Below, piece by piece: positions 4,919 to 19,956 of a DNA stretch of 64,000 nucleotides. Each line of letters begins with the position of its first letter. The stretch's first letter is position 1. The stretch is from IMG/VR virus record IMGVR_UViG_3300020048_000136; one strand, 5' to 3'. The DNA comes from a virus. The position numbers and the translations under genes are program-made. The notes under the pieces are model-generated. The model was not told the DNA's origin. It worked only from the letters and a program-made list of their open reading frames with translations, and ran no database searches.

Positions 4919-7336
4919 TTATGTTTCTGAGGTTATTGAATCTGTATCATGCCTTGTACGAATCTTCATCCACCTTCCTGACATATCTCTACCATCCTCA
5001 GGCATAACACCCTCTTTGAACATAGCATATGAGATAAGCCATTTGTAGAATCGTGTACGGGATATGGTCATCTTTGACCGTGAACCATAGTCGGGGTATT
5101 CGTTTATAAAGTCGTTGAATAGTTCTTGCTTATAAAGTTTAACACCTGCTTCTAACAATCTGTTAGGCTCAGTACCTTCAATAATTCCGCACCATTCAAT
5201 GAATTCATGTGATGACTCTGCTGATAGTTGGCGAATCTTAAGGTTTACAAACTTAGCTTTAACCAAGCCTGTATTAAGGTATCCCTGTAAGCAGCTAATC
5301 ATGTAGTTGTCGAATTCGCACCAATCGTCATCATTCCAATCCCCGAACATCAGTTTCCCGAACTCATCAAGAGGAGTGAACTCCTTTGTGTAATACTGAT
5401 GAAGTTCAAGTTCCCACTTCCTACGTGCAAATGAATTACCTGCACCCTTAATAGCATAGTTGGTTGTGATGGCAATTTTCGGTGATTTGCTGAATGGAAT
5501 CTTGATGGCATCTTTGTTCTTCTTCTCCAATGTCAGCCCCTCGGTGACAACGCTGAACAGACGTTCAAAATCGAAGTGCTTCTTAACGTCATCGAATACA
5601 AGAATCTGAGTGTCTGCCGATACTAACTGATAAGCGAATGACCGCTCAAAAGTAAATGACTTTCCGTCAATAGTTACAACCTTCTTCATGTGACTCAATG
5701 CATTCATAAAGATTCCCTTTCCTGTGCCACCCTCAGGGTTATCACTTATAACCTCATCGTTAAGAATTATAGCAGGGCAGAATGAAAGATTCTTATGTGC
5801 ATGAAGCATAAACCCAATTGTACTATGCATTGAATCTACTCGGCTCTTATCGCCACCACAGATGTTTGATATAAACCTCTTGTAGTCGCAGGACTTTGTA
5901 ACCTTACAGATGTTGAACACCCTGTCAATTACGTGGTCTTTCCAAACATAACCGCCAAGGTCAAGATAGTCTATCGGTATAATCTCATCCTTTGAAACCA
6001 TAACAGCGCAGTTCTTGTAGTAGATGTAAGCCTCGGTAGCCGTATCAGCAATAAAGTAAATGTCGATTGTGGAAAGAAGAGTCAAGAACTCATCCTTAAA
6101 GAACCGTGTTTGGTCAGCGAAGTAGTTGTAAATCCCGACATCGTCTAACTCAATAACGTATGACAGTATGAAGTCTTTAATTTCCTTCTCTGATGTGTGG
6201 TCAATCAAGTTGTTGGTAACCTTTACAAACACATAGTTCTTGCTACCTTCGGGACAGTACTTGTAAAATCCATTGTCCTCAAGGAAGTGCTTGAAAAGTA
6301 TGTGGATTATCTGAATCCTACCCTTATCATTCTTAGACCAAAATATTTGCTTTGAGTTCTCCTCTTCAACTTTTGACAACACGGAATCAATAATATCGCT
6401 ATCCAAATTTGACTCCTGTAATTGGTAGCGAATCTCTTTTTTTGATACACCCCTCCTCAATTTAGTTTTTATAGCGTTAATCCTTTCTTCATCCTCATAG
6501 TACTTAGTTCCAAAGTTGGCTGTATTAAGATATGCTGAGTCAATTGTTCGCTGTATCTCCCGTGACGTGAAGTCTTCAGAAACATACTGCGTTAACACAA
6601 ATGATGCAAGGCTCTTGGCTACTCCAAAATCATTCATTGCCATTGCCAATACATATGTATTCTGATTGCGCTGCCCCGAAACCATTGGATACTTATGTAG
6701 CCACCATTTTGTTAGGATTTCAACAATCTTGTTCTCGTCTGTAATTGGGATTGTAGGAGAATCTCTGTTCTTGCTAACCTCATTATACGATGTTTCTTCT
6801 ATCGTATCCCAAATCGAACTGTTGATATTGACGTGAGTCCTTGGGTCATATGATTCGTAGCATACTCGGCTGATATTCTTGCTCGTCTTATCGAAGTATG
6901 GAGAGTTAAAATAATTCTCCAACGAATTGAAGTAGTTGAGATGATTTTCTACATCGGGTGGAATCTTAACAAGTATCTTTAGTCCATTGCCCGATGGTGA
7001 AATAAAAATTGCAAATACGTATTTGTTTTTTGAAAGAGTCTCCTTGTCTTGAAGAAGTTCCTTCTGAGTTTGATACCCGTCAAAGTCTAAGCAGATAAGC
7101 CCGCTATGGTCAATTATTGAGTTATCATTCCTCTTGGTAAAAGTTCCGCTAAAGCATATGGCAGGTAACTTCTTTTTCAATTCGTTACGCTCAGATTTAT
7201 TCTTCTCTAATCGTATCTTCTTTACAAGGTCTTTAGATGCTCCCTCCTTTATCCTCTCAAGGATTGTCATGACATCCCTATGGAACGGAGTGGCTGTTTC
7301 TTTTATAGTTTGGAATATTGTAACATTTGCTCCCAT
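4919..7336 (-). CDS. primase-helicase (N-terminal AEP/VirE-BT4734-like primase plus D5-like SF3 P-loop helicase)
   Basis: Acidic primase motif LICLDFDGY near the N-terminus. Walker A NPEGGTGKGIF and Walker B-like ILVFDDV in the C-terminal half. 805 aa. Confidence 0.8.
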   Translation of the reverse strand: MGANVTIFQTIKETATPFHRDVMTILERIKEGASKDLVKKIRLEKNKSERNELKKKLPAICFSGTFTKRNDNSIIDHSGLICLDFDGYQTQKELLQDKETLSKNKYVFAIFISPSGNGLKILVKIPPDVENHLNYFNSLENYFNSPYFDKTSKNISRVCYESYDPRTHVNINSSIWDTIEETSYNEVSKNRDSPTIPITDENKIVEILTKWWLHKYPMVSGQRNQNTYVLAMAMNDFGVAKSLASFVLTQYVSEDFTSREIQRTIDSAYLNTANFGTKYYEDEERINAIKTKLRRGVSKKEIRYQLQESNLDSDIIDSVLSKVEEENSKQIFWSKNDKGRIQIIHILFKHFLEDNGFYKYCPEGSKNYVFVKVTNNLIDHTSEKEIKDFILSYVIELDDVGIYNYFADQTRFFKDEFLTLLSTIDIYFIADTATEAYIYYKNCAVMVSKDEIIPIDYLDLGGYVWKDHVIDRVFNICKVTKSCDYKRFISNICGGDKSRVDSMHSTIGFMLHAHKNLSFCPAIILNDEVISDNPEGGTGKGIFMNALSHMKKVVTIDGKSFTFERSFAYQLVSADTQILVFDDVKKHFDFERLFSVVTEGLTLEKKNKDAIKIPFSKSPKIAITTNYAIKGAGNSFARRKWELELHQYYTKEFTPLDEFGKLMFGDWNDDDWCEFDNYMISCLQGYLNTGLVKAKFVNLKIRQLSAESSHEFIEWCGIIEGTEPNRLLEAGVKLYKQELFNDFINEYPDYGSRSKMTISRTRFYKWLISYAMFKEGVMPEDGRDMSGRWMKIRTRHDTDSITSET

Positions 7337-7506: not shown

Positions 7507-7511
7507 AGGTT

Positions 7512-7540
7512 AAAAAAGGGGACTATTACATCCCCCTTTT
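7512..7540 (-). terminator. rho-independent terminator after the SSB gene (bidirectional shape)
   Basis: Stem GGGGA/TCCCC with an 8-nt loop. It is followed by a T-run on both strands. Confidence 0.65.
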
Positions 7541-7562
7541 ATATTCCAACTACTGTATTGGT

Positions 7563-7874
7563 TTAGAATGGCAAGTCATCATCAATAGGGGCAGCGTTCC
7601 GAGTGGGTTGTGGAGCAGGAGCAGGTTGACGAGCAGGAGCAGGAGCAGCAGTAGTCTCATCTGCCGATTTAGGAGTGAATGTATCCAACTCCAAGTAGTA
7701 GCTTCCGCCCTTAGATTTGTTGATACTCAGGTTTACCCAACCATTCTTGATGTTTGCATTTAAGAAATCAACTGCATCCTCTACCTTGATTGATAGCTTT
7801 CCTACCACGAAGTCGGGTGCATTGTCTCTACGTTTGAAAGAGAATCCGTTAGCAAAGATTTTTTCTTCTGCCAT
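7563..7874 (-). CDS. ssb: single-stranded DNA-binding protein
   Basis: C-terminal acidic tip DDDLPF preceded by a Pro/Ala/Gln-rich linker, as in bacterial and phage SSBs. Sits among replication genes. Confidence 0.7.
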   Translation of the reverse strand: MAEEKIFANGFSFKRRDNAPDFVVGKLSIKVEDAVDFLNANIKNGWVNLSINKSKGGSYYLELDTFTPKSADETTAAPAPARQPAPAPQPTRNAAPIDDDLPF

Positions 7875-7977
7875 AATTGAAAGTTGTTTTTGTTTTTGTG
7901 TCCCAAATATTTATAATATAGTGCCGAAGATTGGAACGTACTTCGTCATTATATGGAGTGTCGTCAAAGACAAATCG

Positions 7978-8067
7978 TGGTTGGAATGGGAATCGAACCC
8001 ATACTCCGCAGAAGATACCCCACTTTCGTGGCTCGACTACATAGTGCTGCCATTACACTATCCAACC
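7978..8067 (-). tRNA. tRNA-like gene with a non-canonical, expanded anticodon arm (no assignable anticodon)
   Basis: Minus-strand RNA has acceptor stem GGUUGGA/UCCAACC and a D-arm GUG(U)-AAUGGCA-(G)CAC. The T-arm is AUGGG-UUCGAUU-CCCAU, the discriminator is A, and no CCA is encoded. The anticodon position holds stem UGUAG/CUGCG enclosing 25 nt, which include a CCAC-GAAA-GUGG hairpin. Confidence 0.55.
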
Positions 8068-8086
8068 CCCTTTATATTAAAGGGTA

Positions 8087-8827
8087 TTAATTATCAATTA
8101 TCTCGTCAATGTAATAGTTCTCAATGTCCTCAGGATGACCTTGGGCGAAGAACTTATTGAATACCTCAATTGCCCTTGCAACCTTGAACTCGCCATTCTT
8201 AACGAATGCTTCAGTAGGTCTGAAGATTCCAAGCTGTTGAGTCTCTTTATCGATGACAAAGAAGATGAGCGGTTTTCCGAAGAGTATTTGGTAGATGTAT
8301 GCTTGGCTGTCGTAGTTGTACATACGTGCCGACCATTTGAACTTATTGATGTCACTTGTGGTCTTCAAGTCGATTATGCAATTATCGGTTACGATATCCG
8401 CTTTCCCCTTCCACATCATTCCTTGAATCTGACCAACAGCAGGTTCTTCAAACTTGTTGCCAACCTTGTAAATCTCATCAAAGAAATATATGTTTGATTT
8501 CATTACGCTCGCAAGGCTGACAATATTGTCGTACTCCTTCTTCAGCATAACAAAGTCAAGGTTGTTAGTCTCAATGAACGCTTTGTACTCTTTTGTGGTA
8601 CGTGTTGTGACATCTACAAACTGAACCAATTTAGCTTTCTCCTGCTCTATCAGAAGTTGGTGGAAGAATCTCCCCTCGGCAAATGCCTTGGAGTCTTCAC
8701 GCTCAACCCCGAATAATTTAGGGTTTGAAAGTAATATTCCGATATCGGAATTTGATAAGTAATTCTTTCCTACACCCGTGTAGTACTCGGAATCAGTCTT
8801 CAGTAAATCAATTACGGCTTTATCCAT
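8087..8827 (-). CDS. PD-(D/E)XK (RecB/Cas4-like) exonuclease
   Basis: Motifs GKADIV...IIDLKT and QAYIYQ. Immediately adjacent to the annealing-protein gene, forming a recombination pair. Confidence 0.7.
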   Translation of the reverse strand: MDKAVIDLLKTDSEYYTGVGKNYLSNSDIGILLSNPKLFGVEREDSKAFAEGRFFHQLLIEQEKAKLVQFVDVTTRTTKEYKAFIETNNLDFVMLKKEYDNIVSLASVMKSNIYFFDEIYKVGNKFEEPAVGQIQGMMWKGKADIVTDNCIIDLKTTSDINKFKWSARMYNYDSQAYIYQILFGKPLIFFVIDKETQQLGIFRPTEAFVKNGEFKVARAIEVFNKFFAQGHPEDIENYYIDEIIDN

Positions 8828-8829
8828 GG

Positions 8830-9510
8830 TTAGTTTTCGGAATTAACGAGTTTCTCAATAGCTTTCTTTACGGCTGCTTTAACTTTATACTTACGCTGAA
8901 CCTGCTGAAGAATCTTCTCCACCCCAAGCGCTTTGTTAGCGGTTATATACGAGGCGACTTTCACCCATCCATCGGTATCGATGATAAGGTCTGTAATTAC
9001 AGGAACTACAGGCTGCTCAACGGGGACGACAGTAGCTGCTTCTACTACAACCTCAGGCATATCCTCACCTGCATAAATATACAGTCCAAGTCCGAACATT
9101 GCTAAGTTCTTAGTCAAGCATCGCATGATAGTTTTATTGATGTCGAACATCGTAGCAGCCTCAACAGATTTCTCCACATCAGTCTTAACATTGTTTACCC
9201 ACCCTTTTACGAAGTATGTGTATGGGTCAGATTTCATGGCTCTGTTTGCTCCGTCCATTACAGGCAACCACATCTCATGCATTATATCTCCAATCGTAAC
9301 CTCGGTGAATACCATGTACCCCGTGTTCGGGTCATAGAAGTAAGGAAGACCTTCATTGTTCTTTACGATTTGATACCGTGCCTCAGGATAGAGTTTCTTT
9401 ATCTCAGCCCAAGCGTAAGCCCATGACAGGTACGTCAGACCATTCTTCTTTTCGGTCTTGGAGTTTACGTTGATTTCATTTAAAGTCTGAAAGACTAAGT
9501 TGTTGTCCAT
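8830..9510 (-). CDS. single-strand annealing protein (Rad52/Sak-DUF1071-like)
   Basis: N-terminal GLTYLSWAYAWAEIKKLYPEA motif, recalled from Rad52-like phage SSAPs. Paired with the exonuclease gene. Confidence 0.55.
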   Translation of the reverse strand: MDNNLVFQTLNEINVNSKTEKKNGLTYLSWAYAWAEIKKLYPEARYQIVKNNEGLPYFYDPNTGYMVFTEVTIGDIMHEMWLPVMDGANRAMKSDPYTYFVKGWVNNVKTDVEKSVEAATMFDINKTIMRCLTKNLAMFGLGLYIYAGEDMPEVVVEAATVVPVEQPVVPVITDLIIDTDGWVKVASYITANKALGVEKILQQVQRKYKVKAAVKKAIEKLVNSEN

Positions 9511-9923
9511 TTGATTAGATTAGATTGTTTTTTGATAATTTGATTATACTTTAATTTAAGCGACTCCCTGTAGGATAATAGTTCATGTAGTAGTTTCTCG
9601 TTACAGCTTCCACTACAGGATTCGGCATCAATCCTCCGTTGATTTACTAAAAGTTTAGCGTTGCAGTTGTACAAAGCTATGTGTATTACTCCTAACTTCC
9701 ACCCATTTTCTAAAAAAAACAAGTAATCTTCTTTGCTTATTTCTCGGTAGTAATCACCGCCAAGATGCGTATTATAGATGTGGACTTCGTTAGTATTAAT
9801 ATCCTTGGTAATCTTGACCCCTGACCCGATATACCCAATATACTCAATTCCTGTTAGGGGAGCGCTATCGGCATCCTTACCTGCTTGGTTGAATGTGTCC
9901 ATCAACGAGTCTATAGCGTACAT
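9495..9923 (-). CDS. hypothetical protein (142 aa)
   Basis: Track ORF with short overlaps on both neighbours. Confidence 0.5.
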   Translation of the reverse strand: MYAIDSLMDTFNQAGKDADSAPLTGIEYIGYIGSGVKITKDINTNEVHIYNTHLGGDYYREISKEDYLFFLENGWKLGVIHIALYNCNAKLLVNQRRIDAESCSGSCNEKLLHELLSYRESLKLKYNQIIKKQSNLIKWTTT

Positions 9924-10210
9924 CTCTCAACCTCCCTCATTACGTGGATATAGTCATCATCCAACTTCATTCTATCGCTTGATGCCTTTATCCCATGGAT
10001 TATAGACGAGTGACCAATCTTGTAGCCCGATGCAGCCATATATTTTTGAATGTACATTACCTGCATTGGTCGGTGAAAGCATACGTAATATAGTATGTGA
10101 CGAGCATCAACCAATTCCCTACGTTTGCTCTTGCTGAATAATTCCTCCCGTGTTATGCCGAACTTAGATATTATCTTATCGACATAGCTGTTGAATACGT
10201 CCTGTTTCAT
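9911..10210 (-). CDS. DnaA domain IV-like HTH DNA-binding protein
   Basis: SKRRELVDARHILYYVC...IGHSSIIHGIK resembles the DnaA C-terminal pattern R..ARQIAMYL...RDHSTVIHA. The internal ATG at 10210 is preferred: it lies 19 nt after the upstream stop and is preceded by AAACCTTTAAAA. Confidence 0.5.
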   Translation of the reverse strand: MKQDVFNSYVDKIISKFGITREELFSKSKRRELVDARHILYYVCFHRPMQVMYIQKYMAASGYKIGHSSIIHGIKASSDRMKLDDDYIHVMREVERCTL

Positions 10211-10229
10211 GATTTTTAATTTTAAAGGT

Positions 10230-10529
10230 TTAGCCCTTGAGCCACTCAACAATGTAACCGCTCCCATCAAGTTCGTTAATAACCGATATTGGATAGAGCA
10301 ATTTGAATGCATTACGGATTTGATTCCATGTTTCCACATCCCTTATCCCCGTGTAAGCGGAGAGTTCATTTTTTACTTCTTGAAGTTTACTTTCCATTTG
10401 ATTAGATTTAGATTGTTTTAGATTAAATTCCATTTCCAAAGAACTATGGGAGATGACAATGTCTTCGAAGACAATATCATCACCCTCACGCTCTCGCACC
10501 TGCATAAACAGGTCTTTAGTCTTGCCCAT
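10230..10529 (-). CDS. hypothetical acidic protein (99 aa)
   Basis: Track ORF with a promoter box 20 nt upstream. It contains an internal AATCTAATCAAATG leader-like motif at about 10397, so it could be two genes in one frame. Confidence 0.5.
   Translation of the reverse strand: MGKTKDLFMQVREREGDDIVFEDIVISHSSLEMEFNLKQSKSNQMESKLQEVKNELSAYTGIRDVETWNQIRNAFKLLYPISVINELDGSGYIVEWLKG
10460..10473. repeat. palindrome TGTCTTCGAAGACA (inside ORF 10230..10529; read as VFED)
   Basis: Exact match. Confidence 0.95.
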
Positions 10530-10549
10530 AATAAATTAGATTAGCCGAC

Positions 10550-10557
10550 AAAGATAA
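10550..10557 (-). promoter_or_regulatory. Bacteroidota-type -7 box TATCTTTG
   Basis: Minus strand reads GCTTATCTTTGTCGG, ending 20 nt before the ATG at 10529. Confidence 0.55.
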
Positions 10558-10593
10558 GCATTATGTTCATACGATGTACATTCATCGATTAAT

Positions 10594-10998
10594 TTATTTT
10601 AGCGATGGCTGCACCTTTTCTTTCCAATATTTATCCTCTACTTTATTGAGGTTTGAGTTGGATATCAGAGTGCTTGGTTTAGCCATGTCTTCGTGGTCGT
10701 GTAGGTTTACATAGAAGTTCCCATTATTTAGAACCTCAATGAAGAACCCACCAATATATCTGATGACGTGAACACAATCGGGATGAAGGACAGCCACTCT
10801 ATTGTAGTCGTTCTTGAATGTGTTGGCAGGGATATACTTTCCCGTATCTCTGAAAGATTCAAGGGATAGTTCATCCTCCTTGTCCATCAATTTCTGTAGC
10901 TGCATGATATACAACCTGTTGGGTCTGCGCCTCAACTTTTCTGCTAAAATCTCATCAATTACTATCTGCATCTTTATTTTCTTTAGAAGGTTCAACAA
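10594..10998 (-). CDS. hypothetical protein (134 aa; alternative start at 10971)
   Basis: Track ORF. Overlaps the upstream gene by 44 nt, or by 17 nt if the ATG at 10971 is used. Confidence 0.5.
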   Translation of the reverse strand: MLNLLKKIKMQIVIDEILAEKLRRRPNRLYIMQLQKLMDKEDELSLESFRDTGKYIPANTFKNDYNRVAVLHPDCVHVIRYIGGFFIEVLNNGNFYVNLHDHEDMAKPSTLISNSNLNKVEDKYWKEKVQPSLK

Positions 10999-11194
10999 TT
11001 ATGGAATAGATGTATATCCCGCCAAGTCCTAATAGCGTTGACCATATTAAAACTATAGCCAAGGAGTCAAATACTTCGCTCGCTCCATCCGATGTGCTAA
11101 TGAGTCGATACATAACGATAAGGCTATGAACTGTGACAAAAGCATACGAGACACCGAAGAACGCTTTGCTTAAAATGTTCCGTGTTTTTTTCAT
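10955..11194 (-). CDS. small membrane protein (two predicted TM helices)
   Basis: Hydrophobic stretches FFGVSYAFVTVHSLIVMY and LAIVLIWSTLLGLGGIYIYSII. Promoter box upstream. Confidence 0.5.
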   Translation of the reverse strand: MKKTRNILSKAFFGVSYAFVTVHSLIVMYRLISTSDGASEVFDSLAIVLIWSTLLGLGGIYIYSIIVEPSKENKDADSN

Positions 11195-11216
11195 TATTTA
11201 AAGATTAATGGGTGTA

Positions 11217-11224
11217 CAAATATA
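11217..11224 (-). promoter_or_regulatory. Bacteroidota-type -7 box TATATTTG
   Basis: Minus strand reads ACTATATTTGTACACC, ending 22 nt before the ATG at 11194. Confidence 0.5.
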
Positions 11225-11233
11225 GTACATTAG

Positions 11234-11536
11234 TTATAAAAAATTAAGGTCTGCGCACTTTACATACACAAATCCATCAATTGTTTTCTTGGTAGCCTTT
11301 GCCCATGTGGTTTTAGCTGATAACCCCCTATTCATTTTCCCAACTTCGATGTATATTTTAAGGTTCCTATCCATCTCTGCGTTAAGTTCTTTGTAGGATT
11401 TTATCATAATCATTATGTTCTGCCCTAAGATTCGCTCCTTTCGGTATATCTTGAATATCCCGAACACGTATATCTCTGCTGCCTTTGAGGTGACATCCAT
11501 CCATAGAATGTCACCCTTCGTCTTTATCAATGCCAT
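11234..11536 (-). CDS. hypothetical protein (about 100 aa)
   Basis: Track ORF 11234..11596. The internal start MALIKTKGD at 11536 is preferred. Confidence 0.45.
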   Translation of the reverse strand: MALIKTKGDILWMDVTSKAAEIYVFGIFKIYRKERILGQNIMIMIKSYKELNAEMDRNLKIYIEVGKMNRGLSAKTTWAKATKKTIDGFVYVKCADLNFL

Positions 11537-11623
11537 AGTTACGAGTTTAGTATATATAAAACACCTGCTGTTATTATTATTGCAATGGTAACCCATGTCA
11601 CAACCGCCAATACCGAATCATTA

Positions 11624-11851
11624 TTATCCATTTTCATCGGTATCCTTTTTAGTGATTGTGGGAAAGTTTATTAGGTCAATCCTGCGCTGAAATTCAGTCC
11701 CCAAGCATCCACGCTTGAAAGCCATCTGCTCCCATAGCGCTGTGTTCTCAGGAGTTCTCTCTGTTAGCTTGGACATCCGTCTTGAGTAGTGCGACATAAG
11801 AGCCGACAAATCAATCATAGACAGGTCAGATAGTTCGGTCTTCTTAACCAT
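11624..11851 (-). CDS. hypothetical protein (75 aa)
   Basis: Track ORF. Confidence 0.5.
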   Translation of the reverse strand: MVKKTELSDLSMIDLSALMSHYSRRMSKLTERTPENTALWEQMAFKRGCLGTEFQRRIDLINFPTITKKDTDENG

Positions 11852-12242
11852 AAATAACCTCCCCTAAAACTATGTACTGAAAGATAACGTCACTTGACTC
11901 GGCATCTCCATTATCTTCAATCTCGCTAATCAGATATGATATCATATTGTCATCGTCAGCAATCTTCTGTAGTCGCTCCCACATAGTACTCATTGAGATT
12001 GTTCCTAAGCACTCATCCTCTTCTTCCCCATCATGGATATCAATATCAATATTCATGTCGTAGACGGCTTTAAATAGAGCCGTAGATAAGCAAGGGTCTT
12101 CAGTCTTGGGGACAGCAGCCCTAATCTTCTTGATGCTGTGTTCGGGGATGAAGTACCAATAATTACTACCACCCTCAATAGCGGTTATAAAGATGCACTC
12201 CAACACTTCTCGTGTAATCTCTTTCTTTACGGTGATGTTCAT
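11844..12242 (-). CDS. hypothetical acidic protein (132 aa)
   Basis: Track ORF. Confidence 0.55.
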   Translation of the reverse strand: MNITVKKEITREVLECIFITAIEGGSNYWYFIPEHSIKKIRAAVPKTEDPCLSTALFKAVYDMNIDIDIHDGEEEDECLGTISMSTMWERLQKIADDDNMISYLISEIEDNGDAESSDVIFQYIVLGEVIYG

Positions 12243-12583
12243 AACAGATTCAGTTTTAATTGTGTATAATTAGGTAAGTTAATTGGCTGCTCCTTAAATA
12301 CGGATAGCTTGCTCTCGGCTTTCTTCAGCCCCACGTATGGAGGTGAGTGACTGCCTGATGTAGCTACAGAATAGAACTTGAGAACTAAATCATCAGTCCA
12401 TCTGAACCCATCTCCATAGCCCTCAAGATGCAGGGATTTAAAGATTCGAATCTTGTCGGCTACCTTCCTCGCTCCGCAGTACGGAGGTTCATCGGCACAT
12501 CCCGAATGATAGACTCGGATAAATTGCCTCAACAGGTCTTCAGTCCATTGAAACCCATCCGATTCAATTTTTGTTTTTGTCAT
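12239..12583 (-). CDS. hypothetical protein made of two tandem ~45-aa repeats
   Basis: DGFQWTEDLLRQFIRVYHSG...PPYCGARKVADKIRIFKS is followed by DGFRWTDDLVLKFYSVATSG...PPYVGLKKAESKLSVFKE. The start is moved to the ATG at 12583 because 12584-12613 belongs to the conserved hammerhead tail. Confidence 0.55.
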   Translation of the reverse strand: MTKTKIESDGFQWTEDLLRQFIRVYHSGCADEPPYCGARKVADKIRIFKSLHLEGYGDGFRWTDDLVLKFYSVATSGSHSPPYVGLKKAESKLSVFKEQPINLPNYTQLKLNLL

Positions 12584-12603
12584 AGGTTTATTTATTAAGG
12601 GTT

Positions 12604-12654
12604 TCCGTTTCATCGTTTACGAATCATCGGTCAGGATACACATCCCAAGACAGA
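12604..12654 (-). ncRNA. hammerhead ribozyme-like element HHR-3 (type III topology, U4C core variant)
   Basis: Minus RNA reads UCUGU-C | UUGGGAU-GUGU-AUCCUGA | CCGAUGA | UUCG-UAAA-CGAU | GAA-ACGGA. Same architecture as HHR-1 and HHR-2, with compensatory changes in stem I and a G.U pair in stem III. Confidence 0.5.
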
Positions 12655-12683
12655 AGGAGTGTCTTCGACGACACCCCAACCCT

Positions 12684-13844
12684 TTATTCTCTAAATTTAA
12701 CTACCTCCTCTTCTCTGAACCATATCCCGCAAGACTTGCAGTAATAGTTCGCAAACCCATCAAACTCCAAATCAGAATAGCAATCAACGCACATAGCGTT
12801 CTCCTCGGTGATATTGAAATCAGTAGGAGTAGTTCCCGTTATGAAATCCTGCTCGGATAATCCCGACATAAAATCAAGTTCGTACCTTACATCAGCATCT
12901 TGGAATCGGGATGGCTTATAAGTAATTTCGGGACGAGTCTGAGGTGTAGGAGTATATTTCGGAGCATAACCCATAATCCTTTCAGTATATGTGCGAAAAT
13001 CCTGCTTGTATGCTTTGTGGAATGTAGCATTGGCGCTTATCATCTTCGGATTGAAGTATAACCAACATACAAGGACATTCCCGTTAGCCATCTTGATAGG
13101 AATCTGCTGCCTCTGATACCAATTGGGATGACCTTCCAACCTATCCAAATCAGTTAGCTTATCATCGCTGACCTTGAAAACATCAACAGCAACATTATGC
13201 CCGATACCTTTGCGATTCACTACATAAGGTAGCCCCTCTATTATTAACGGATACTTATCCTTGGTGACTCCATTGCCGACATAAGTACTCTTGGTAAGAT
13301 ACGACTGATAGTTATTGTATCCCTTCTTCAGAGTCCCGTATACGGCAACCAAATGCTCTTGGAGGACATTGCCCTTTGAGTACCAAATATCGCCTCTCAT
13401 TGACCATAGCTGTTGATTGTAAATCTCGTATGTTTTAGTCTTTACGTTGACCGTGACAAACCTGCATGGGTATTTTGCAAGTTCTTCTTCCCAACCGCTC
13501 CTCGGAATCAATCCTAACTTTTCAGCCAACACTTTGCTGTCAGTCTTTTTGTGAGTCCCGATACCCTGTATTGTACCGTTCATCATGAGCCATTCATCCG
13601 AATTTGCACCGCATTGGAATGGATGAGTATTGTCTTTCCCAATCTTGCCAACCGTAGCATAGCGGAAGTGCGCTATAAATGGTCGGGCTGTATCAAGAAC
13701 CTTAAATTCTGATGACTTGTGATAACTGATACTGTAGTCATCAAGCCATACAACACCCAACCCGTCAGGATTGATTAAGGATGATGTCTTGGCTATCTCT
13801 GTGGACAGCCTCTCATTCGACTTCTTAATGATTATTACACACAT
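12684..13844 (-). CDS. fusion protein: class II (Ntn) glutamine amidotransferase, gamma-glutamylcyclotransferase (AIG2/GGACT-like) domain, and C-terminal zinc ribbon
   Basis: N-terminus MC(2)VIII with HFRYATVG...NTHPF...MMNGTI (GATase-II pattern). Central AVYGTLKKGYNNY...LDRLEGHPNWYQR (GGCT/AIG2 pattern). C-terminus CVDC...CKSC. Confidence 0.7.
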   Translation of the reverse strand: MCVIIIKKSNERLSTEIAKTSSLINPDGLGVVWLDDYSISYHKSSEFKVLDTARPFIAHFRYATVGKIGKDNTHPFQCGANSDEWLMMNGTIQGIGTHKKTDSKVLAEKLGLIPRSGWEEELAKYPCRFVTVNVKTKTYEIYNQQLWSMRGDIWYSKGNVLQEHLVAVYGTLKKGYNNYQSYLTKSTYVGNGVTKDKYPLIIEGLPYVVNRKGIGHNVAVDVFKVSDDKLTDLDRLEGHPNWYQRQQIPIKMANGNVLVCWLYFNPKMISANATFHKAYKQDFRTYTERIMGYAPKYTPTPQTRPEITYKPSRFQDADVRYELDFMSGLSEQDFITGTTPTDFNITEENAMCVDCYSDLEFDGFANYYCKSCGIWFREEEVVKFRE

Positions 13845-13908
13845 GATTAAATTAAATTATGGACAGCCACACCCGTAGATATGACTGCCCTGTTAAACAA
13901 TGAATCGA

Positions 13909-13916
13909 CAAAGATA
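13909..13916 (-). promoter_or_regulatory. Bacteroidota-type -7 box TATCTTTG upstream of the GATase-GGCT gene
   Basis: Minus strand reads GTTTTATCTTTGTCGATTC, ending 64 nt before the ATG at 13844. Confidence 0.5.
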
Positions 13917-13960
13917 AAACATATAATAGACATATGCAAGCATTTTCTAAAATATATTTT

Positions 13961-14419
13961 TTAACAGTAGTAAGGTCTCCCTTTTGTTTGATTCTCGCCA
14001 AGGATAAACTCGTCAAAGAATGTGTAATAACCGCCCCGACTCATCTGAACACCCTCTTGATGTTTCTCAATAATAGTCCTGTTCTGCTCGGATGTCATAG
14101 TTGGGTATGTGTATGCTGTGTAGTACCAACCACCTTCTTCTGCACCGCCATAACAACGCTCGTAGCAGTACTGAACTGTGATGGCAGGATAAACATCGCC
14201 TCCGCAGGATAATACGAATTTGACGGCTGTATCTATTACGTCATCATCGTGTAGATAGGTATCGGAAATAATTACAGCCTCGGCATCCTCTATTAGCTGC
14301 TCAAGATGTTCGGGAGCATGAGTTGATGCATACAGGCATTTGTCCTGCTCGTAAAAACGAGCAACAAACACAACATCTACAGAGCCTTCATAGCCCCGAA
14401 TTGAATACGTTCTTAGCAT
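13961..14419 (-). CDS. hypothetical protein (152 aa)
   Basis: Track ORF. Confidence 0.55.
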   Translation of the reverse strand: MLRTYSIRGYEGSVDVVFVARFYEQDKCLYASTHAPEHLEQLIEDAEAVIISDTYLHDDDVIDTAVKFVLSCGGDVYPAITVQYCYERCYGGAEEGGWYYTAYTYPTMTSEQNRTIIEKHQEGVQMSRGGYYTFFDEFILGENQTKGRPYYC

Positions 14420-14424
14420 ATTGG

Positions 14425-14673
14425 TTAAGTTAAAATGATTACTATTCTTATGTCATTGTAGATTGTGGATGCAGTTACATATCCGCAAGAATCTACGGTC
14501 ATCTTGGCAACCTCGGCATTTATAACATTTGCTATCTCTGCCTTGTAATGCCCTTGCAGGGTGATTTCTGATTTGCTTACGCTTATTGAGTAGAAATACT
14601 CAAGCGGTAAATCCTTGGGAGACAATAAAGCCTCAACCATTTCTAAGTTCTTTATGATAAGATGGTCTTCCAT
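14425..14673 (-). CDS. hypothetical protein (82 aa)
   Basis: Track ORF. Confidence 0.5.
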   Translation of the reverse strand: MEDHLIIKNLEMVEALLSPKDLPLEYFYSISVSKSEITLQGHYKAEIANVINAEVAKMTVDSCGYVTASTIYNDIRIVIILT

Positions 14674-14697
14674 AATATTTGTCTTTAAAGATATTAT

Positions 14698-14943
14698 TTA
14701 TTTATTTGTGATTTCTTCGGCATCAGTCCATGCTGCCAACAGGCTTGGATATTCGTATCCATCGACTAAATCCAATGCGTTAAACGCATCTTCATCCCAC
14801 TTGGTGATATCTTTGTCCATCTGATACTGACAGAATACCGTGGTATCCTTTGTTGCGCTGACTCCCACAACACTTACGACTGAGGTATCATAGTTGGTTA
14901 CAACCATCCACTTCATCGCCATTAAGAGCAAGAATGTTTTCAT
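14698..14943 (-). CDS. hypothetical protein (81 aa)
   Basis: Track ORF. A one-mismatch copy of the palindrome (TGTCTTTAAAGATA) overlaps its stop at 14689-14702. Confidence 0.5.
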   Translation of the reverse strand: MKTFLLLMAMKWMVVTNYDTSVVSVVGVSATKDTTVFCQYQMDKDITKWDEDAFNALDLVDGYEYPSLLAAWTDAEEITNK

Positions 14944-14991
14944 GATTCTATAAATTAGATTAAATTAAACTGTACGGATTATCCGCACATT

Positions 14992-15026
14992 GCAGCTAAG
15001 AGGGGAATCGAACCCCTCACAAGCAG
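14992..15026 (-). ncRNA. isolated tRNA T-arm/acceptor-like minihelix (or tRNA 3'-half relic)
   Basis: Minus RNA reads GUGAGGGG-UUCGAUU-CCCCUC-UUAGCUGCA, a canonical T-loop sequence on a 6-bp stem. No D or anticodon arm can be built upstream because that region is the 3' end of ORF 15030..15296. A 7-bp hairpin follows at 14969-14985. Confidence 0.4.
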
Positions 15027-15029
15027 AGT

Positions 15030-15296
15030 TTATGACCTTAAGAATGCCAATAACTCATCCATGTAGCTAACCTCATCACCATCGTCATTTGTTCGGGTAT
15101 CCAAATCCTCAAAGTAGAGGTATTCAGCAGCCCATTCCGAAAAACGTCCCTTCTGCTCGGCATCCATTGCCTTCCAAAGGTTTTTAGCTTGCGTATTCTG
15201 CCCGTTTGACCTTGAGTCTATGATGTACTCAAAGTAATCGTTGATGCAATCGAACTCGTATGGCTCATACAAATTCCTGTCTGCGAAGTAGTCCAT
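15030..15296 (-). CDS. hypothetical acidic protein (88 aa)
   Basis: Track ORF. Confidence 0.55.
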   Translation of the reverse strand: MDYFADRNLYEPYEFDCINDYFEYIIDSRSNGQNTQAKNLWKAMDAEQKGRFSEWAAEYLYFEDLDTRTNDDGDEVSYMDELLAFLRS

Positions 15297-15298
15297 GC

Positions 15299-15469
15299 CT
15301 ATTCAGTTTTAGATTGTTTGTCCTCAGGATAATCGACTCCGATTACCTTGCCGTGTTTGCACACCTTATTGTACCACTCCGTGAAGTGCGCATCGTCACG
15401 GAATGTTTTATTGTAGATTGAATACGCTCCATCGTTTGATTTCACGGTGCATACATAAGTGAATTCCAT
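15299..15469 (-). CDS. small hypothetical protein (56 aa, below track cutoff)
   Basis: ATG at 15469-15467 and TAG at 15301-15299. Translation MEFTYVCTVKSNDGAYSIYNKTFRDDAHFTEWYNKVCKHGKVIGVDYPEDKQSKTE. Exactly fills the gap between two track ORFs. Confidence 0.4.
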   Translation of the reverse strand: MEFTYVCTVKSNDGAYSIYNKTFRDDAHFTEWYNKVCKHGKVIGVDYPEDKQSKTE

Positions 15470-15473
15470 ATTG

Positions 15474-15680
15474 TTACAGTTTAGTGATGAAGAAAAGAGT
15501 TGAGAACACCATATAGGTGAAGATGTGCCACTTCAGATTGCTCCATGATTTCGGCTCATCTGATAGGATTATTACAGCTATTGCCAATGCAGATAGCGTT
15601 ACGAATGTATATGTCCTCATCCCGTAGAAGAATGACGGGAGAATTAAGCAATAGCTTAATATTACGTGCTTGATGTTCAT
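15474..15680 (-). CDS. small membrane protein (68 aa)
   Basis: Track ORF, largely hydrophobic, with two or three TM-like segments. Confidence 0.5.
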   Translation of the reverse strand: MNIKHVILSYCLILPSFFYGMRTYTFVTLSALAIAVIILSDEPKSWSNLKWHIFTYMVFSTLFFITKL

Positions 15681-15682
15681 AT

Positions 15683-15973
15683 CTATTTGATATTATATTT
15701 GTCTAACAATACTTTGAATCCGTGGCGCACTGCCTTTACATAAGCATCAGAGAGATGCCCGAATGTAGCAGGATTGCTCATAAGGATAGAGGTGATAGAT
15801 ACGTAGCGCATCTCTATCTCATGGAGCAGAACCTCGTTAGTCTCACCCATTACGATAGCATTGATAATCTCGGGAGCAGTACTACACTTCCTGCAATTGA
15901 AGACTCCCGTCCTTTTGGATTCGATGTGCCGATTGGCAATCTCGCTCTGCAAAGCACTCAATCTGTTGCTCAT
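15683..15973 (-). CDS. hypothetical protein (96 aa)
   Basis: Track ORF. The start lies 21 nt downstream of HHR-1. Confidence 0.55.
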   Translation of the reverse strand: MSNRLSALQSEIANRHIESKRTGVFNCRKCSTAPEIINAIVMGETNEVLLHEIEMRYVSITSILMSNPATFGHLSDAYVKAVRHGFKVLLDKYNIK

Positions 15974-15994
15974 AGCTTTTTGGTTTTAAAGGTT

Positions 15995-16048
15995 TCCGTT
16001 TCGACTGTTTTCAGTCTTCATCAGCGAAGATACACATCTTCGGACGGA
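15995..16048 (-). ncRNA. hammerhead ribozyme HHR-1 (type III topology)
   Basis: Minus RNA reads UCCGU-C | CGAAGAU-GUGU-AUCUUCG | CUGAUGA | A | GACUG-AAAA-CAGUC | GAA-ACGGA. All core residues are present: C3-A9, G12A13A14, A15.1-U16.1 and the GUC cleavage triplet. One extra nt lies between A9 and G10.1. Confidence 0.75.
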
Positions 16049-16072
16049 GGGAATGTCTTTAAAGACAATCCC
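16049..16072 (-). terminator. 12-bp hairpin abutting the HHR-1 5' end (contains the TGTCTTTAAAGACA palindrome)
   Basis: GGGAATGTCTTT/AAAGACAATCCC with one mismatch. Lies 10 nt after the stop of 16083..16379. The T-run is on the plus strand only. Confidence 0.45.
16054..16067. repeat. palindrome TGTCTTTAAAGACA (hairpin upstream of HHR-1)
   Basis: Exact match. Confidence 0.95.
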
Positions 16073-16082
16073 TTTTTGCGTA

Positions 16083-16379
16083 TTATTTTACGTATACTTT
16101 ATACGTTTTGCCCGTTTTCTTCGAAGTGCGCAGGTAATAAACACCGCCCTTGCTCCCTGTATAAAAGGTTTCCCCTCCTATCACTTGATAAACTTTTGAT
16201 GTCTTTGCTGTTGCTTTGCCCGTATCAGCTATTGTGGTAACCTGACCGTTTACCATCTTGTAATGTGGCGGCTTTTGAGCCTTTACCATAACTCCACTAA
16301 GAACCAATACGATGATTCCGATTACTAATGCAACAGAGATGTACCTGTCGCTTGAATTCCTTCTGTCATAATTTGTCAT
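16083..16379 (-). CDS. membrane-anchored basic protein (98 aa)
   Basis: N-terminal TM helix VALVIGIIVLVLSGVMV. The basic C-terminus TGSKGGVYYLRTSKKTGKTYKVYVK resembles viral basic-adaptor-type repeats (low confidence). Confidence 0.55.
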   Translation of the reverse strand: MTNYDRRNSSDRYISVALVIGIIVLVLSGVMVKAQKPPHYKMVNGQVTTIADTGKATAKTSKVYQVIGGETFYTGSKGGVYYLRTSKKTGKTYKVYVK

Positions 16380-16401
16380 AAGACTTAGAATTTAAAAGAT
16401 T

Positions 16402-16455
16402 TCCGTTTCGACTCTTTAGAGTCATCATCAGCGAAAGCACTCACCTTCGGACGGA
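16402..16455 (-). ncRNA. hammerhead ribozyme HHR-2 (type III topology)
   Basis: Minus RNA reads UCCGU-C | CGAAGGU-GAGU-GCUUUCG | CUGAUGA | U | GACUC-UAAA-GAGUC | GAA-ACGGA. The core is identical to HHR-1, and stems I and II carry compensatory differences. Confidence 0.75.
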
Positions 16456-16475
16456 GGGAGAGATTGCGCTCTCCC
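16456..16475 (-). terminator. 7-bp hairpin abutting the HHR-2 5' end
   Basis: GGGAGAG-attgcg-CTCTCCC, 10 nt after the amidoligase stop. Confidence 0.45.
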
Positions 16476-16485
16476 GTGATTTAGT

Positions 16486-17487
16486 TTAGAAATTTATGTC
16501 AGCTAACTCATCGACAATACCTTCGATTGAATTTCGCCTTGCAGCATTGCTGACTCCTCGCTCGTAAAGACTCCTCATCTGCATACGTGGGTCAACAAAC
16601 TTTTGCACCTCTGTTCCGATTTTGCCCGTCTTAATCATCCTGTGGAATGCCTTGGACAATTCCATGATTTTCTCGGCTTTGTCAACATTGCCATTATACA
16701 TGGAGATAATGATAGGCTTTATGACCTTCAAAAATGATGCATAGGATGTCCGTGGTTTATTGACGGATATATTTACAATCTCGTACATCAATTCGTATCT
16801 GCGCATCATCTGCTTTACAGACTCGAATCGGGAGATGACTCTAAATTCAACTCCGCTTGTCCCGTCAGGGAATCTGACGTACTTTGCGAGATTGTATTTG
16901 GTATGGTATCCGTTGAACCATTGCGCCCTGTCAGATATTGGCAGCATAGTAAGGTTATGGCTGCAATAGCTGTTTGTCAGACGATTGCGAAACAATGCGA
17001 GGAGAATAGCTGAGTTTAAGCGAATCTTGCTGAGTAACTCTTCCCCGTCCATACCTACGCAAGTAATTGTGGCATGACCTCCGCAGTTATTACTGCTTGG
17101 GCTGAATCTGTCATCAATAATACGCTCTGCTTTGTGCATCATGTCGTAAACTTTATTCCTCCATAAACCCGACGGGAGCAAAGGTAAAACGTGAGTTACT
17201 GCCTCGTATCCGCAGCTATTATCTTGCTCAAATCCGCAAAATAATTCATATTCACGAATCGCATCCCTATGAAGTTGATTCTTTTCAACTTCGAATCCGA
17301 TTGTAAATTTGGATGTCACTTCGTCACCCAAAACAGTCACAGCATTTGCTTGTATTACAGGTTTTAGGCTTTCGACATCAGCCCTATAGGCTTTATTCAA
17401 TTTGAACGGTGACGGTTTCGCGTGATAGGAACACACTCTTCCTCGTGCTCTCTCGCCTGAGGTGAGATAAACCACTTCTTTTTTCAT
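16486..17487 (-). CDS. putative amidoligase (glutamine synthetase-like COOH-NH2 ligase family)
   Basis: Motifs IGFEVEKN, GYEAVTHVLP, CGGHATI and GVEFRVISRF match, as recalled, the GxExE / E..T / H.H / EFR pattern of the phage and plasmid amidoligase family. Confidence 0.6.
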   Translation of the reverse strand: MKKEVVYLTSGERARGRVCSYHAKPSPFKLNKAYRADVESLKPVIQANAVTVLGDEVTSKFTIGFEVEKNQLHRDAIREYELFCGFEQDNSCGYEAVTHVLPLLPSGLWRNKVYDMMHKAERIIDDRFSPSSNNCGGHATITCVGMDGEELLSKIRLNSAILLALFRNRLTNSYCSHNLTMLPISDRAQWFNGYHTKYNLAKYVRFPDGTSGVEFRVISRFESVKQMMRRYELMYEIVNISVNKPRTSYASFLKVIKPIIISMYNGNVDKAEKIMELSKAFHRMIKTGKIGTEVQKFVDPRMQMRSLYERGVSNAARRNSIEGIVDELADINF

Positions 17488-17491
17488 AGTG

Positions 17492-17515
17492 TTAAAGGTT
17501 AAAGGTTAAAGGTTA
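17492..17515 (-). repeat. three tandem copies of the AACCTTTAA leader motif
   Basis: Minus strand reads TAACCTTTAACCTTTAACCTTTAA, ending 4 nt before the amidoligase ATG. Confidence 0.7.
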
Positions 17516-17523
17516 GTAAATTG

Positions 17524-17566
17524 TGGGAGTGAGATGAATCGAACATCTCACTTGCACCTTGCTCCC
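17524..17566 (-). ncRNA. tRNA acceptor/T-arm-like minihelix
   Basis: Minus RNA reads GGGAG-CAAGGUGCAA-GUGAGAUG-UUCGAUU-CAUCUCAC-UCCCA. It has a T-loop sequence, a 3' part resembling an acceptor strand plus discriminator A, and GGGA/UCCC closure. It has no D or anticodon arms. Confidence 0.4.
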
Positions 17567-17572: not shown

Positions 17573-17586
17573 TGTCTTCAAAGACA
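17573..17586. repeat. palindrome TGTCTTCAAAGACA (3 nt after the stop of 17589..18224)
   Basis: Exact match. Confidence 0.95.
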
Positions 17587-18224: not shown

Positions 18225-18312
18225 ATTATTTAAAGGTTAAAGGTTAATGTTAGCGAATCAGAGAGGTAGCGAATCTCATAACAACTTAATGTTTCTGACT
18301 CAGTCAAGCGCA

Positions 18313-18534: not shown

Positions 18535-18777
18535 TGCTATTGTTTTAAAGGTTAATGTTAGCGAGACAGAGGAAGAAACGAATTCCTTATACATCTGCTG
18601 TTCTGTCTCAGCACTACTTCCAAATGCTGTTTCCCCTCGCAGCATTCCATTCAATCTGTCAATGTACTTGTGTTCCCCTCCTCCGCATTTCTTCACCTCT
18701 GACTCTTCAGAAATGTCATCTAACTGATAATCAAGGAGTTAGTGTCCTGTAGGCTGATTCACTGTCGAATCATGGAG

Positions 18778-18785
18778 CAAATATA
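18778..18785 (-). promoter_or_regulatory. Bacteroidota-type -7 box TATATTTG, candidate leftward early promoter
   Basis: Minus strand reads AAGACTATATTTGCTCC. This is the first such box at the right edge of the leftward block. Confidence 0.45.
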
Positions 18786-18901: not shown

Positions 18902-18915
18902 TGTCTTTGAAGACA
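18902..18915. repeat. palindrome TGTCTTTGAAGACA (control region)
   Basis: Exact match. Confidence 0.95.
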
Positions 18916-19948: not shown

Positions 19949-19956
19949 TATATTTG
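19949..19956 (+). promoter_or_regulatory. Bacteroidota-type -7 box TATATTTG upstream of the chaperonin gene
   Basis: GTTGTATATTTGCATAAACTAAATCTAAT, ending 23 nt before the ATG at 19980. Confidence 0.55.

Follow-up and report, generated by a model that had tools for sequence, protein, structure and literature searches.

Hammerhead ribozymes and tRNA-like minihelices as candidate interchangeable modules for cutting phage polycistronic transcripts

In mitochondrial transcripts, including those with plant mitochondrial t-elements, tRNAs or tRNA-like structures between cistrons are cut by ribonuclease P (RNase P) and RNase Z, which releases the mRNAs and leaves some of them with an incomplete stop codon. 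The MALAT1 and MEN-beta RNAs contain tRNA-like RNase P/Z sites, and in engineered polycistronic tRNA–guide RNA and ribozyme-flanked guide RNA cassettes, tRNAs and hammerheads are interchangeable as means of cutting transcripts. In phages and prophages, clustered hammerheads in polycistrons were proposed by Perreault et al. in 2011 to give gene-length mRNAs, and tandem prophage hammerheads cleave polycistronic transcripts of ~2 kb in vitro (PMC3088659). Here we analyse a 64,000-nucleotide (nt) stretch of viral DNA, IMG/VR record IMGVR_UViG_3300020048_000136 (the window), in which hammerheads occur together with a small tRNA mimic that we call the T-loop minihelix (TLM).

Our favoured reading, held with moderate confidence, is that multi-gene RNAs of the replication and recombination genes, made from few host-type promoters, are cut between cistrons by interchangeable RNA modules. 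We describe the structures, their conservation, their covariation and their interchange by position, and from these we infer cleavage, the nuclease and effects on mRNA stability.

Hammerheads in the early gene block

The minus strand is the coding strand of the block at 1–19.5 kb, whose gene functions are replication and recombination. A preliminary description of this DNA had placed six RNA elements in the block, namely three hammerheads, a tRNA-like gene and two acceptor/T-arm minihelices; all six are real, all lie on the minus strand and all sit in intergenic spacers. The hammerheads at 16.4 and 16.0 kb are complete and of type III, and the third, at 12.6 kb, is a homologue with a damaged core. 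The pattern CTGATGA-N10-20-CGAAAC occurs twice in the window, against 0.02 occurrences expected. A hammerhead covariance model (R2), built from 14 aligned copies of the window and its relatives with the 12.6-kb copy excluded, and run with filters off over 1–20 kb, returned exactly three hits: 16398–16459 (64.2 bits), 15991–16052 (63.5 bits) and 12600–12658 (57.6 bits). In the 14-copy alignment, 93.8% of cells are paired, 11 of 15 pairs have changes on both sides and the covariation score is 0.64, compared with at most 0.12 in slid controls; stems I and II are closed by loops and stem III is open. A scan of the window for type I hammerheads found none.

The 16.4-kb ribozyme (16402–16455, minus strand), recovered by a descriptor scan as well as by R2 and hammerhead-shaped in its predicted fold, is predicted to cleave itself after C16450 (16450/16449); for the 16.0-kb ribozyme (15995–16048, minus strand; folding z-score −4.6), the predicted cut is at 16043/16042. 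The minus strand of the 16.0-kb spacer reads UCCGUC/CGAAGAU-GUGU-AUCUUCG-CUGAUGA-A-GACUG-AAAA-CAGUC-GAAACGGA, the slash marking the predicted cut, and the 16.4-kb spacer follows the same plan with other stems. Both copies have the full type III core (C3 U4 G5 A6 N7 G8 A9, G12 A13 A14, the A15.1–U16.1 pair and H17), and both carry an extra base between A9 and G10.1, U in the 16.4-kb copy and A in the 16.0-kb copy, so that G10.1–C11.1 does not come directly after A9. An added A or U at this place is tolerated: in the CChMVd hammerhead, an extra A10 moderately slows cleavage and U10 speeds it 3–4 fold (PMC3705267).

The 12.6-kb copy (12604–12654, minus strand; putative site 12649/12648), recognized by R2 without having been in its training set, lies directly 3′ of the GATase-GGCT gene. 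Its core differs from that of type III, reading CCGAUGA (U4 to C) with a U·U at 10.1/11.1, and it is probably slow, attenuated or dead.

A hairpin accompanies each of the three. The GC-rich GGGAGAG-CGCAAU-CUCUCCC hairpin (16456–16475, minus strand), evident from sequence and fold, abuts stem III of the 16.4-kb hammerhead; a hairpin containing the GUCUUUAAAGAC palindrome (16049–16072, minus strand) stands directly 5′ of the 16.0-kb hammerhead; and GGGGUGUC-GUCGAA-GACACUCC (12656–12677, minus strand) stands 5′ of the 12.6-kb variant.

T-loop minihelices form a viral RNA family

The two minihelices differ in their preservation. The one at 17525–17566 (minus strand), found by descriptor scan and scoring 44 bits with a TLM covariance model (R1), is a full family member and lies between F0, a gene of 211 amino acids, and F1, a gene of 333 amino acids (16486–17487, minus strand) near the GATase-GGCT gene. 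It consists of GGGA, an 11-nt bulge (gcaaGGugcaa), GUGAGAUG-UUCGAUU-CAUCUCAC and UCCC, followed by ACAA. Upstream of it, a palindromic hairpin, UGUCUUUGAAGACA (17573–17586, minus strand), begins 2 nt past the F0 stop codon and ends 6 nt before TLM position +1; downstream, a leader of three tandem AACCTTTAA repeats (17492–17514, minus strand) leads to the F1 start codon. The sequence GTTCGATTC occurs three times in the window (0.49 expected), each time on the minus strand and in an intergenic spacer.

The general plan of the TLM, from 5′ to 3′, is an A at −1, an acceptor-like stem of 4–6 base pairs (bp), a 10–12-nt bulge with (A)UGGU, a T-stem of 6–8 bp, a UUCGANU loop, an unbroken 3′ strand and an A-C-N-A tail. 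Several comparisons bear on whether this plan is maintained. First, a set of 18 copies, taken from the window and eight relatives (nine genomes), lies wholly on the coding strand; the stems differ throughout from one copy to another, the loop and bulge are constant and G–U pairs occur on the coding strand only. In this set, 79.9% of cells are paired compared with 56% in shuffles, both sides change in 11 of 12 pairs and covariation is 0.64 against at most 0.19 in slid controls. Second, a further 37-copy set gave a covariation of 0.84, with controls at or below 0.2. Third, a genome may hold up to four copies, which differ in sequence and are all co-oriented with the genes. Fourth, a pattern scan of IMG/VR yielded 120 loci, on which R1 made 39 + 24 hits in many unrelated viral contigs with GC contents from 37% to 74%. 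In all, there are ~59 distinct copies, mostly from viral contigs. The same DNA pattern in bacterial genomes marks mostly ordinary tRNA-Val genes, with a TLM at only 5 of 80 loci. On these comparisons of sequence, the TLM is a real, selected RNA structure.

Among the first 49 copies analysed, the total TLM helix is 11–12 bp in 35, compared with 12 bp for the stacked acceptor and T arms of tRNA; position −1 is A in 33; and the tail, which in pre-tRNA is the RCCA that RNase P uses as a determinant, has the consensus A (28 copies)-C (33)-N-A (31), with exact ACCA in only a few. The T-loop bases G53, U54, U55, C56, R57, A58 and C61 are all present, and the loop GUUCGANUC is invariant, an invariance partly built in by search patterns that demanded this loop. 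An open reading frame (ORF) ends at most 150 nt 5′ of the element in 52 of 59 copies, and the next AUG follows at a median of 34 nt on the 3′ side. ARAGORN called a tRNA at only one of 87 hits overall and at none of the relatives' TLMs in the first set. Rfam 15 has no family for the TLM; the best match is mascRNA-menRNA (RF01684) at 21.5 bits (E = 0.36), below the gathering threshold of 42.5, and the Rfam model of transfer-messenger RNA (tmRNA), with its tRNA-like end, gives sub-threshold matches only.

A conserved sequence of ~45 nt, cccggaaggcgtYaagagacggg...gtgtggaaagaca, stands before the TLM in a single unrelated lineage of phages (L096 at ~770–816, L035, L099, L023, L047, L076 and L072; such labels denote our genomes and contigs) and may be another structured element.

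The second minihelix of the window, at 14987–15027 (minus strand; R1 22.8 bits, E = 2e-4 and 1e-5), has a genuine T-arm, GAGGGG-UUCGAUU-CCCCUC at 15000–15018, and no real acceptor stem. Its 11-nt 5′ bulge lacks GG, and its 'acceptor' amounts to three A–U pairs (UAA/UUA), the 5′ strand of which is the stop codon of the upstream gene. As its letters read, this element is a degenerate TLM copy.

The tRNA-like gene described near 7978–8067 is likewise present: ARAGORN places it at 7977–8067 (minus strand), and it scores 42.9 bits with Rfam RF00005 (threshold 29). The 7-bp acceptor stem, D arm and T arm are normal, the last with a GTTCGAWYC loop, and the D arm has exactly the sequence found in ordinary phage tRNA-Gln, tRNA-Met and tRNA-His. 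The anticodon region is read by ARAGORN either as Ser(cga), with a stem only 3/5 paired, or as Asp(atc) with an 18-nt 'intron'; an alternative arm forms a good 5-bp stem around 25 nt that include a CCAC-GAAA-GUGG hairpin, an insert absent from ordinary phage tRNAs having the same D arm. There is no 5-bp anticodon stem with a 7-nt loop and U33, and no CCA is encoded. By its predicted arms, the element is a tRNA-like structure and no credible decoder. The hairpin CCCUUU-AAUAU-AAAGGG (8068–8084, minus strand) ends exactly at its position +1. Other anticodon-less tRNA-like elements occur 5′ of the F7 gene in L003 (~9709–9800, in the same spacer as the 8.0-kb element of the window) and L002 (~9662–9755), and also in L267 and L278; all keep the T arm and an acceptor stem of 7 bp, unrelated hairpins taking the place of the middle (the L002 D arm is tRNA-Leu-like), and ARAGORN called none of the four.

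These elements could be taken for decaying tRNA pseudogenes or remnants of tRNA-targeted integration, functionless in themselves, with the hammerheads alone processing RNA. The plain degeneracy of the 15.0-kb element is in keeping with such decay, as are the likeness of the 8.0-kb element to an ordinary phage tRNA with a disrupted anticodon arm and the modules' sporadic occurrence among relatives. Decay would not, however, produce stems that covary heavily around a fixed loop and bulge, a pattern that already indicates purifying selection on structure, nor up to four differing copies per genome that are all co-oriented with genes, nor a geometry and an intercistronic place that stay constant in unrelated contigs across that range of GC content. 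An att remnant, moreover, would not pair a 5′ acceptor strand with a D-loop-like bulge. We regard a pseudogene origin as quite improbable.

Hammerheads and minihelices occupy the same orthologous spacers

Relatives were fetched through the GATase-GGCT protein, giving a comparison set of 15 genomes including the window, in which ORFs were grouped into families and orthologous spacers were compared. The relatives have canonical copies of the window's hammerhead on the coding strand. None of the 15 genomes is without a module in the spacer after F1: ten (the window, L001–L007, L009 and L014) have a type III hammerhead and five (L008 and L010–L013) a TLM. In the tree of F1, the genomes with a TLM at this site form two clades, which implies at least two replacements. 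Four genomes (the window, L008, L010 and L011) have a TLM in the spacer between F0 and F1; L007 has a type III hammerhead there, and L004, L006 and L014 have a type I hammerhead, whereas in the remaining genomes this spacer has a GUGUCUUYRAAGACAC hairpin alone, or nothing. The spacer after the GATase-GGCT gene has a hammerhead in the window (the variant core), L002, L003, L009 and L013, the L003 copy with the same U10.1·U11.1 variant as the 12.6-kb copy. On one strand of an unrelated contig, L124, a block of small ORFs contains a TLM, two type I hammerheads and a TLM-like element, in that order. Because a self-cleaving RNA and a tRNA mimic repeatedly occupy the same site, we propose that both kinds of module cause a cut there.

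The type I hammerheads of the relatives (L004 at 5852–5919, 7524–7587 and 9254–9317; L006; L014; L007 at 8929–8992; L001 at 2269–2322) have a GGUUAA/UUAACC stem I and a long closed stem III like the usual intergenic hairpin; in L004, L006 and L014, the F0 stop codon overlaps stem I. Since the cut of these copies falls at the 3′ end of the module, unlike that of type III, the conserved feature would be the cut itself and not the side that retains the module. A search for transcript-derived contigs that end at the cleavage sites found the gene concerned in only one metagenomic contig.

Exchange with hammerheads could also mean that the TLM is a new class of small self-cleaving ribozyme, and earlier ribozyme classes were indeed discovered through their association with hammerheads. 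We consider this highly improbable, given that the conserved bases of the TLM are all those of the tRNA T-loop and GG bulge, a known and purely architectural motif, with no other conserved core.

Modules are likely internal to transcription units

The early block had been taken for one operon, a view that we abandon: four Bacteroidota-type −7 boxes (TAnnTTTG) lie in intergenic positions within the minus-strand block (at 18785, 13916, 11224 and 10556), and an intrinsic terminator, GGGGGAUGUAAUAGUCCCC followed by UUUUUU (~7510–7536, minus strand), separates a 103-amino-acid gene from the primase gene. The box TATATTTG (18778–18785, minus strand) is the likely start of the unit with the 17.5-, 16.4-, 16.0- and 15.0-kb modules, and TATCTTTG (13909–13916, minus strand), with TTG at −33, is the likely promoter of the unit with the GATase-GGCT gene and the 12.6-kb hammerhead; the others lie at 11217–11224 and 10549–10556 (minus strand). 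A scan of the block found no host-type TAnnTTTG box in the module-bearing spacers. Because the boxes sit elsewhere, the modules are likely internal to multi-gene units, the first reaching from ~18.8 to 13.96 kb with its four modules and the second likely containing the GATase-GGCT gene and the 12.6-kb module.

A different arrangement would give each gene its own promoter and hairpin terminator, or a hairpin promoter for a phage RNA polymerase, and leave the modules to trim a few nucleotides from primary 5′ ends, with no part in separating cistrons. It would account for the hairpin before almost every module and for the strong over-representation of a GTGTCTTYRAAGACAC palindrome, and the genome encodes a 3218-amino-acid protein of unassigned function. 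Yet the hairpins before hammerheads vary between copies and genomes and have no U-tracts, the host-type −7 boxes are placed elsewhere in the block, and the palindrome is found within ORFs as well. The type I hammerheads of the relatives, cutting at the module's 3′ end, would trim no 5′ leader. We think such single-gene transcription improbable to much the same degree as a pseudogene origin of the minihelices.

A model for intercistronic cutting

In the mechanism that we propose, the type III hammerheads at 16.4 and 16.0 kb would self-cleave immediately 3′ of a stable hairpin. An upstream mRNA would thereby come to end in the hairpin plus 6–7 nt (UCCGUC) with a 2′,3′-cyclic phosphate, and the downstream mRNA would begin with a 5′-OH and the folded ribozyme body, its AUG lying ~22 nt further on. 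The tRNA mimics, that is, the 42-nt TLM at 17.5 kb and the anticodon-less tRNA-like element at 8.0 kb, would offer a coaxial acceptor/T-arm helix of 11–13 bp with a canonical T-loop, as well as a GG bulge like a D-loop and an A-C-N-A tail, and would thereby resemble a pre-tRNA to host RNase P (cutting at −1/+1) and/or RNase Z (cutting after position 73). The 12.6-kb hammerhead and the 15.0-kb T-arm would be decayed or attenuated copies.

Bacterial RNase P RNA cuts hairpins composed of an acceptor stem plus a T stem-loop, and does so at the canonical position; phage RNAs and operon mRNAs are also processed by RNase P (PMC11143913). Five features of the TLM fit this picture of a substrate: the length of the helix, the T-loop, the bulge with its GG, an A in position −1 and the ACNA tail. 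The conserved (A)UGGU of the bulge may correspond to D-loop G18 G19, which in tRNA forms the elbow with the T-loop. We see an even balance for and against the more specific statement that the TLM is a widespread phage RNA class that recruits host RNase P and/or RNase Z to cut polycistronic mRNAs, is functionally interchangeable with type I and type III hammerheads at the same sites between cistrons, and would be a natural bacterial-virus counterpart of mitochondrial tRNA punctuation, including stop codons that straddle the predicted cut. The preliminary suggestion that these elements are RNA processing devices is partly borne out: they are structured coding-strand RNAs between cistrons, and the comparison with relatives, in which hammerheads and TLMs replace each other in orthologous spacers, is strong support for such modules; the cutting of the minihelices by RNase P or RNase Z is a step that we infer.

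Several observations weigh against intercistronic cutting by these modules. An Rfam hammerhead search of the window gave no hit even at E ≤ 10, and the four L009 copies, which Rfam Hammerhead_3 matches at 36.5–44.7 bits (E = 1e-7 to 2e-5), stay under the RF00008 gathering threshold of 48.5 bits. The relatives' scores fall just short because stem III is short, and the silence in the window is explained by the extra base together with the short stem III; as Rfam detects the canonical copies of relatives and R2 links the window copies to them (57–64 bits), we dropped this silence as evidence against the window hammerheads. Outside this phage group, hammerheads are detectable by scan at only 1 of 120 TLM-pattern loci. 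The hairpin lies 5′ of some TLMs and 3′ of others, being 3′ in L008, L010 and L011, and the idea that it always caps the upstream mRNA was rejected as a rule. The TLM helix is split 5+7 bp, not 7+5 as in tRNA, and the tail is ACNA, not ACCA. The modules are also dispensable, since the closest GenBank relative, MW202828.1 (L141), is without the window's hammerheads and has only a weak TLM variant: at 5745–5815, 5′ of the F0 homologue, a hairpin GUGUCGUUAACGACAC precedes a TLM-like element whose T arm is aberrant (R1 16.4 bits), R2 finds no hammerhead in this genome and no RNA is annotated in the record.

The position of stop codons adds to these points. The stop codon of the upstream ORF lies exactly at TLM positions −2, −1 and +1 in 7 of 52 copies, the commonest single register, and overlaps the 5′ strand in four further copies, ~11 of 52 altogether; examples are L008 7723–7765, L010 3895–3937, L011 7532–7573, L033 2887–2937, L048, L036, L107 and L124 12214–12264. 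The TLM after F1 in L008, L010 and L011 is among those that overlap the upstream stop. An RNase P cut at −1/+1 of such a TLM would remove the stop codon and, in the −2, −1, +1 register, leave an mRNA ending in UA. For these copies, the functional cut may be the 3′ one (RNase Z-like), or both cuts may be made, or the outcome may parallel the incomplete stops of mitochondria.

The same overlap, by speaking against a cut at −1/+1, lends itself to a reading in which the TLM is a functional tRNA mimic with no role in cleavage: a recruiter or titrator of a factor in the 5′ untranslated region, a nuclease decoy or a stabilizing 3′ cap. Its partner could be the ribosome, elongation factor Tu, a modification enzyme, the CCA-adding enzyme or, for a decoy, a host defence nuclease. 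The tight distance to the next AUG would suit such a mimic, as would the small share of TLMs at bacterial pattern loci (5 of 80, against 63 hits in 120 viral loci). What it leaves unexplained is the presence of two hammerhead topologies in the same orthologous spacers, and we consider it unlikely, though worth keeping in mind.

Comparison with known systems

The arrangement is like that of mitochondrial transcripts in having intercistronic tRNA-like marks and, in those seven copies, a stop codon at the predicted cut; the mitochondrial marks are mostly real decoding tRNAs, whereas the TLM is a 42-nt phage minihelix without an anticodon arm, for which cleavage is proposed. It shares with mascRNA and MEN-beta (RF01684) a tRNA-like fold within a long RNA as an RNase P/Z site, but mascRNA is a eukaryotic cloverleaf with D and anticodon arms, and the TLM, far below threshold, is not a member of that family. 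Unlike the synthetic guide RNA cassettes, the combination of hammerhead and tRNA mimic here appears natural. The minimal RNase P substrates of McClain, Guerrier-Takada and Altman (reviewed in PMC11143913) have, like the TLM, a coaxial helix of ~12 bp, a T-loop cap and an RCCA-like tail; those substrates are synthetic, whereas the TLM has an 11-nt GG bulge, the 5+7 split and an ACNA tail. The tRNA-like domains of tmRNA and YrlA Y RNA (PMC4201824) also join an acceptor-like module to a T-arm, possess an analogue of the D-loop and lack an anticodon arm but, unlike the TLM, belong to larger stand-alone non-coding RNAs with other functional domains.

As in the prophage and phage polycistrons of Perreault et al. 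(PMC3088659), several coding-strand hammerheads flank single genes or short gene blocks; in contrast to them, non-catalytic tRNA mimics occur here in the same spacers as hammerheads, the window copies carry an additional base following A9 and one copy has a mutated core. A literature search found no account of a TLM family or of hammerhead/tRNA-mimic interchange, its incomplete coverage leaving novelty unproven. The combination had been put forward as undescribed as a unit, which agrees with that search for the interchange and not for hammerhead cutting of phage polycistrons, proposed in 2011 with in vitro cleavage (PMC3088659); what appears to be new is confined to the tRNA-like partner and the interchange.

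What hammerheads do in bacteria and phages has been largely a matter of conjecture since 2011, and their replacement by TLMs at orthologous sites points to intercistronic cutting. If RNase P or RNase Z cuts the TLM, phages use a tRNA punctuation hitherto linked with organelles. Synthetic operons for bacteria would then gain a compact natural processing tag of 42 nt, a name could be given to many intergenic elements of viral metagenomes that now lack annotation, and the stop-codon overlap would raise the question of how such mRNAs are terminated or rescued.

Genomic setting and other features

A megablast of the window against GenBank phages found no near DNA relative. The closest GenBank relative by protein search, MW202828, is an uncultured 60.8-kb podovirus from a freshwater spring, whose primase is 77% identical to that of the window. 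The window primase is also distantly akin to primases of Flavobacterium, Polaribacter and Cellulophaga phages, a kinship from which the host is probably a member of Bacteroidota. The minus-strand block at 1–19.5 kb encodes a BT4734-N/DUF5906 primase, a Sak single-strand annealing protein, a PDDEXK nuclease, an SNF2 helicase and the GATase-GGCT fusion; the plus-strand half encodes GroEL, terminase, portal and virion proteins and the 3218-amino-acid ORF. The groEL-type chaperonin gene lies at 19980–21578 (plus strand; PHROG 5725, E = 2e-127), and the annotation of MW202828 includes groEL and a 10-kDa co-chaperonin. The 3218-amino-acid ORF (52706–62362, plus strand) has no Pfam domain above noise; in size it is reminiscent of the giant proteins, some of them RNA polymerases, in virions of N4-like and crAss-like podoviruses, and it may be of that kind.

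The F1 protein, earlier labelled an amidoligase, could not be verified as such: the single sequence has no match in Pfam, PHROGs, NCBIfam or PDB, none of its homologues scanned singly matched Pfam, and an alignment profile searched against PDB was also without a match. It is well conserved in the alignment of its homologues (42–57% identity), with many invariant Glu, Asp, His and Arg residues.

The palindrome GTGTCTTYRAAGACAC (core GTCTTYRAAGAC) occurs at 13 sites in the window, against 0.7 expected. It forms the intergenic hairpin beside many modules and also the core of a U-tailed terminator at 40.57 kb, and in relatives it is kept in spacers with or without a hammerhead or TLM. Sites include 17573–17586, 16055–16066, 14681–14692, 18903–18914, 40571–40582 and 62364–62375; those inside ORFs, at 3396, 10461, 20637, 33476 and 54922, include the coding sequences of GroEL, terminase and the giant ORF.

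Within the early block, exact copies of the leader motif AACCTTTAA number nine on the minus strand and one on the plus strand. The minus-strand sites are the three copies before F1, two before F0 (18230–18245) and those at 15986–15994, 18545–18553, 10222–10230 and 600–608. In the relatives, a related (U/A)AACC comes after almost every hammerhead and TLM, and it is the 3′ strand of stem I in their type I hammerheads. The idea that a conserved CUAAC after TLMs is a pure CCA mimic was weakened in consequence, (U/A)AACC also trailing hammerheads as a general leader motif.

On the late side, intergenic −7 boxes lie at 19949–19956, 29556–29563, 37971–37978, 41441–41448 and 49524–49531 (plus strand). 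Several are followed by a conserved 'aaatctaat' leader, which also occurs just 5′ of some early-gene start codons. The divergent gene blocks are separated by a gap of 749 nt that contains, read on the minus strand, a long CTG/CTC-rich low-complexity tract (ctgctcctgctgctgctg...) at ~19170–19290.

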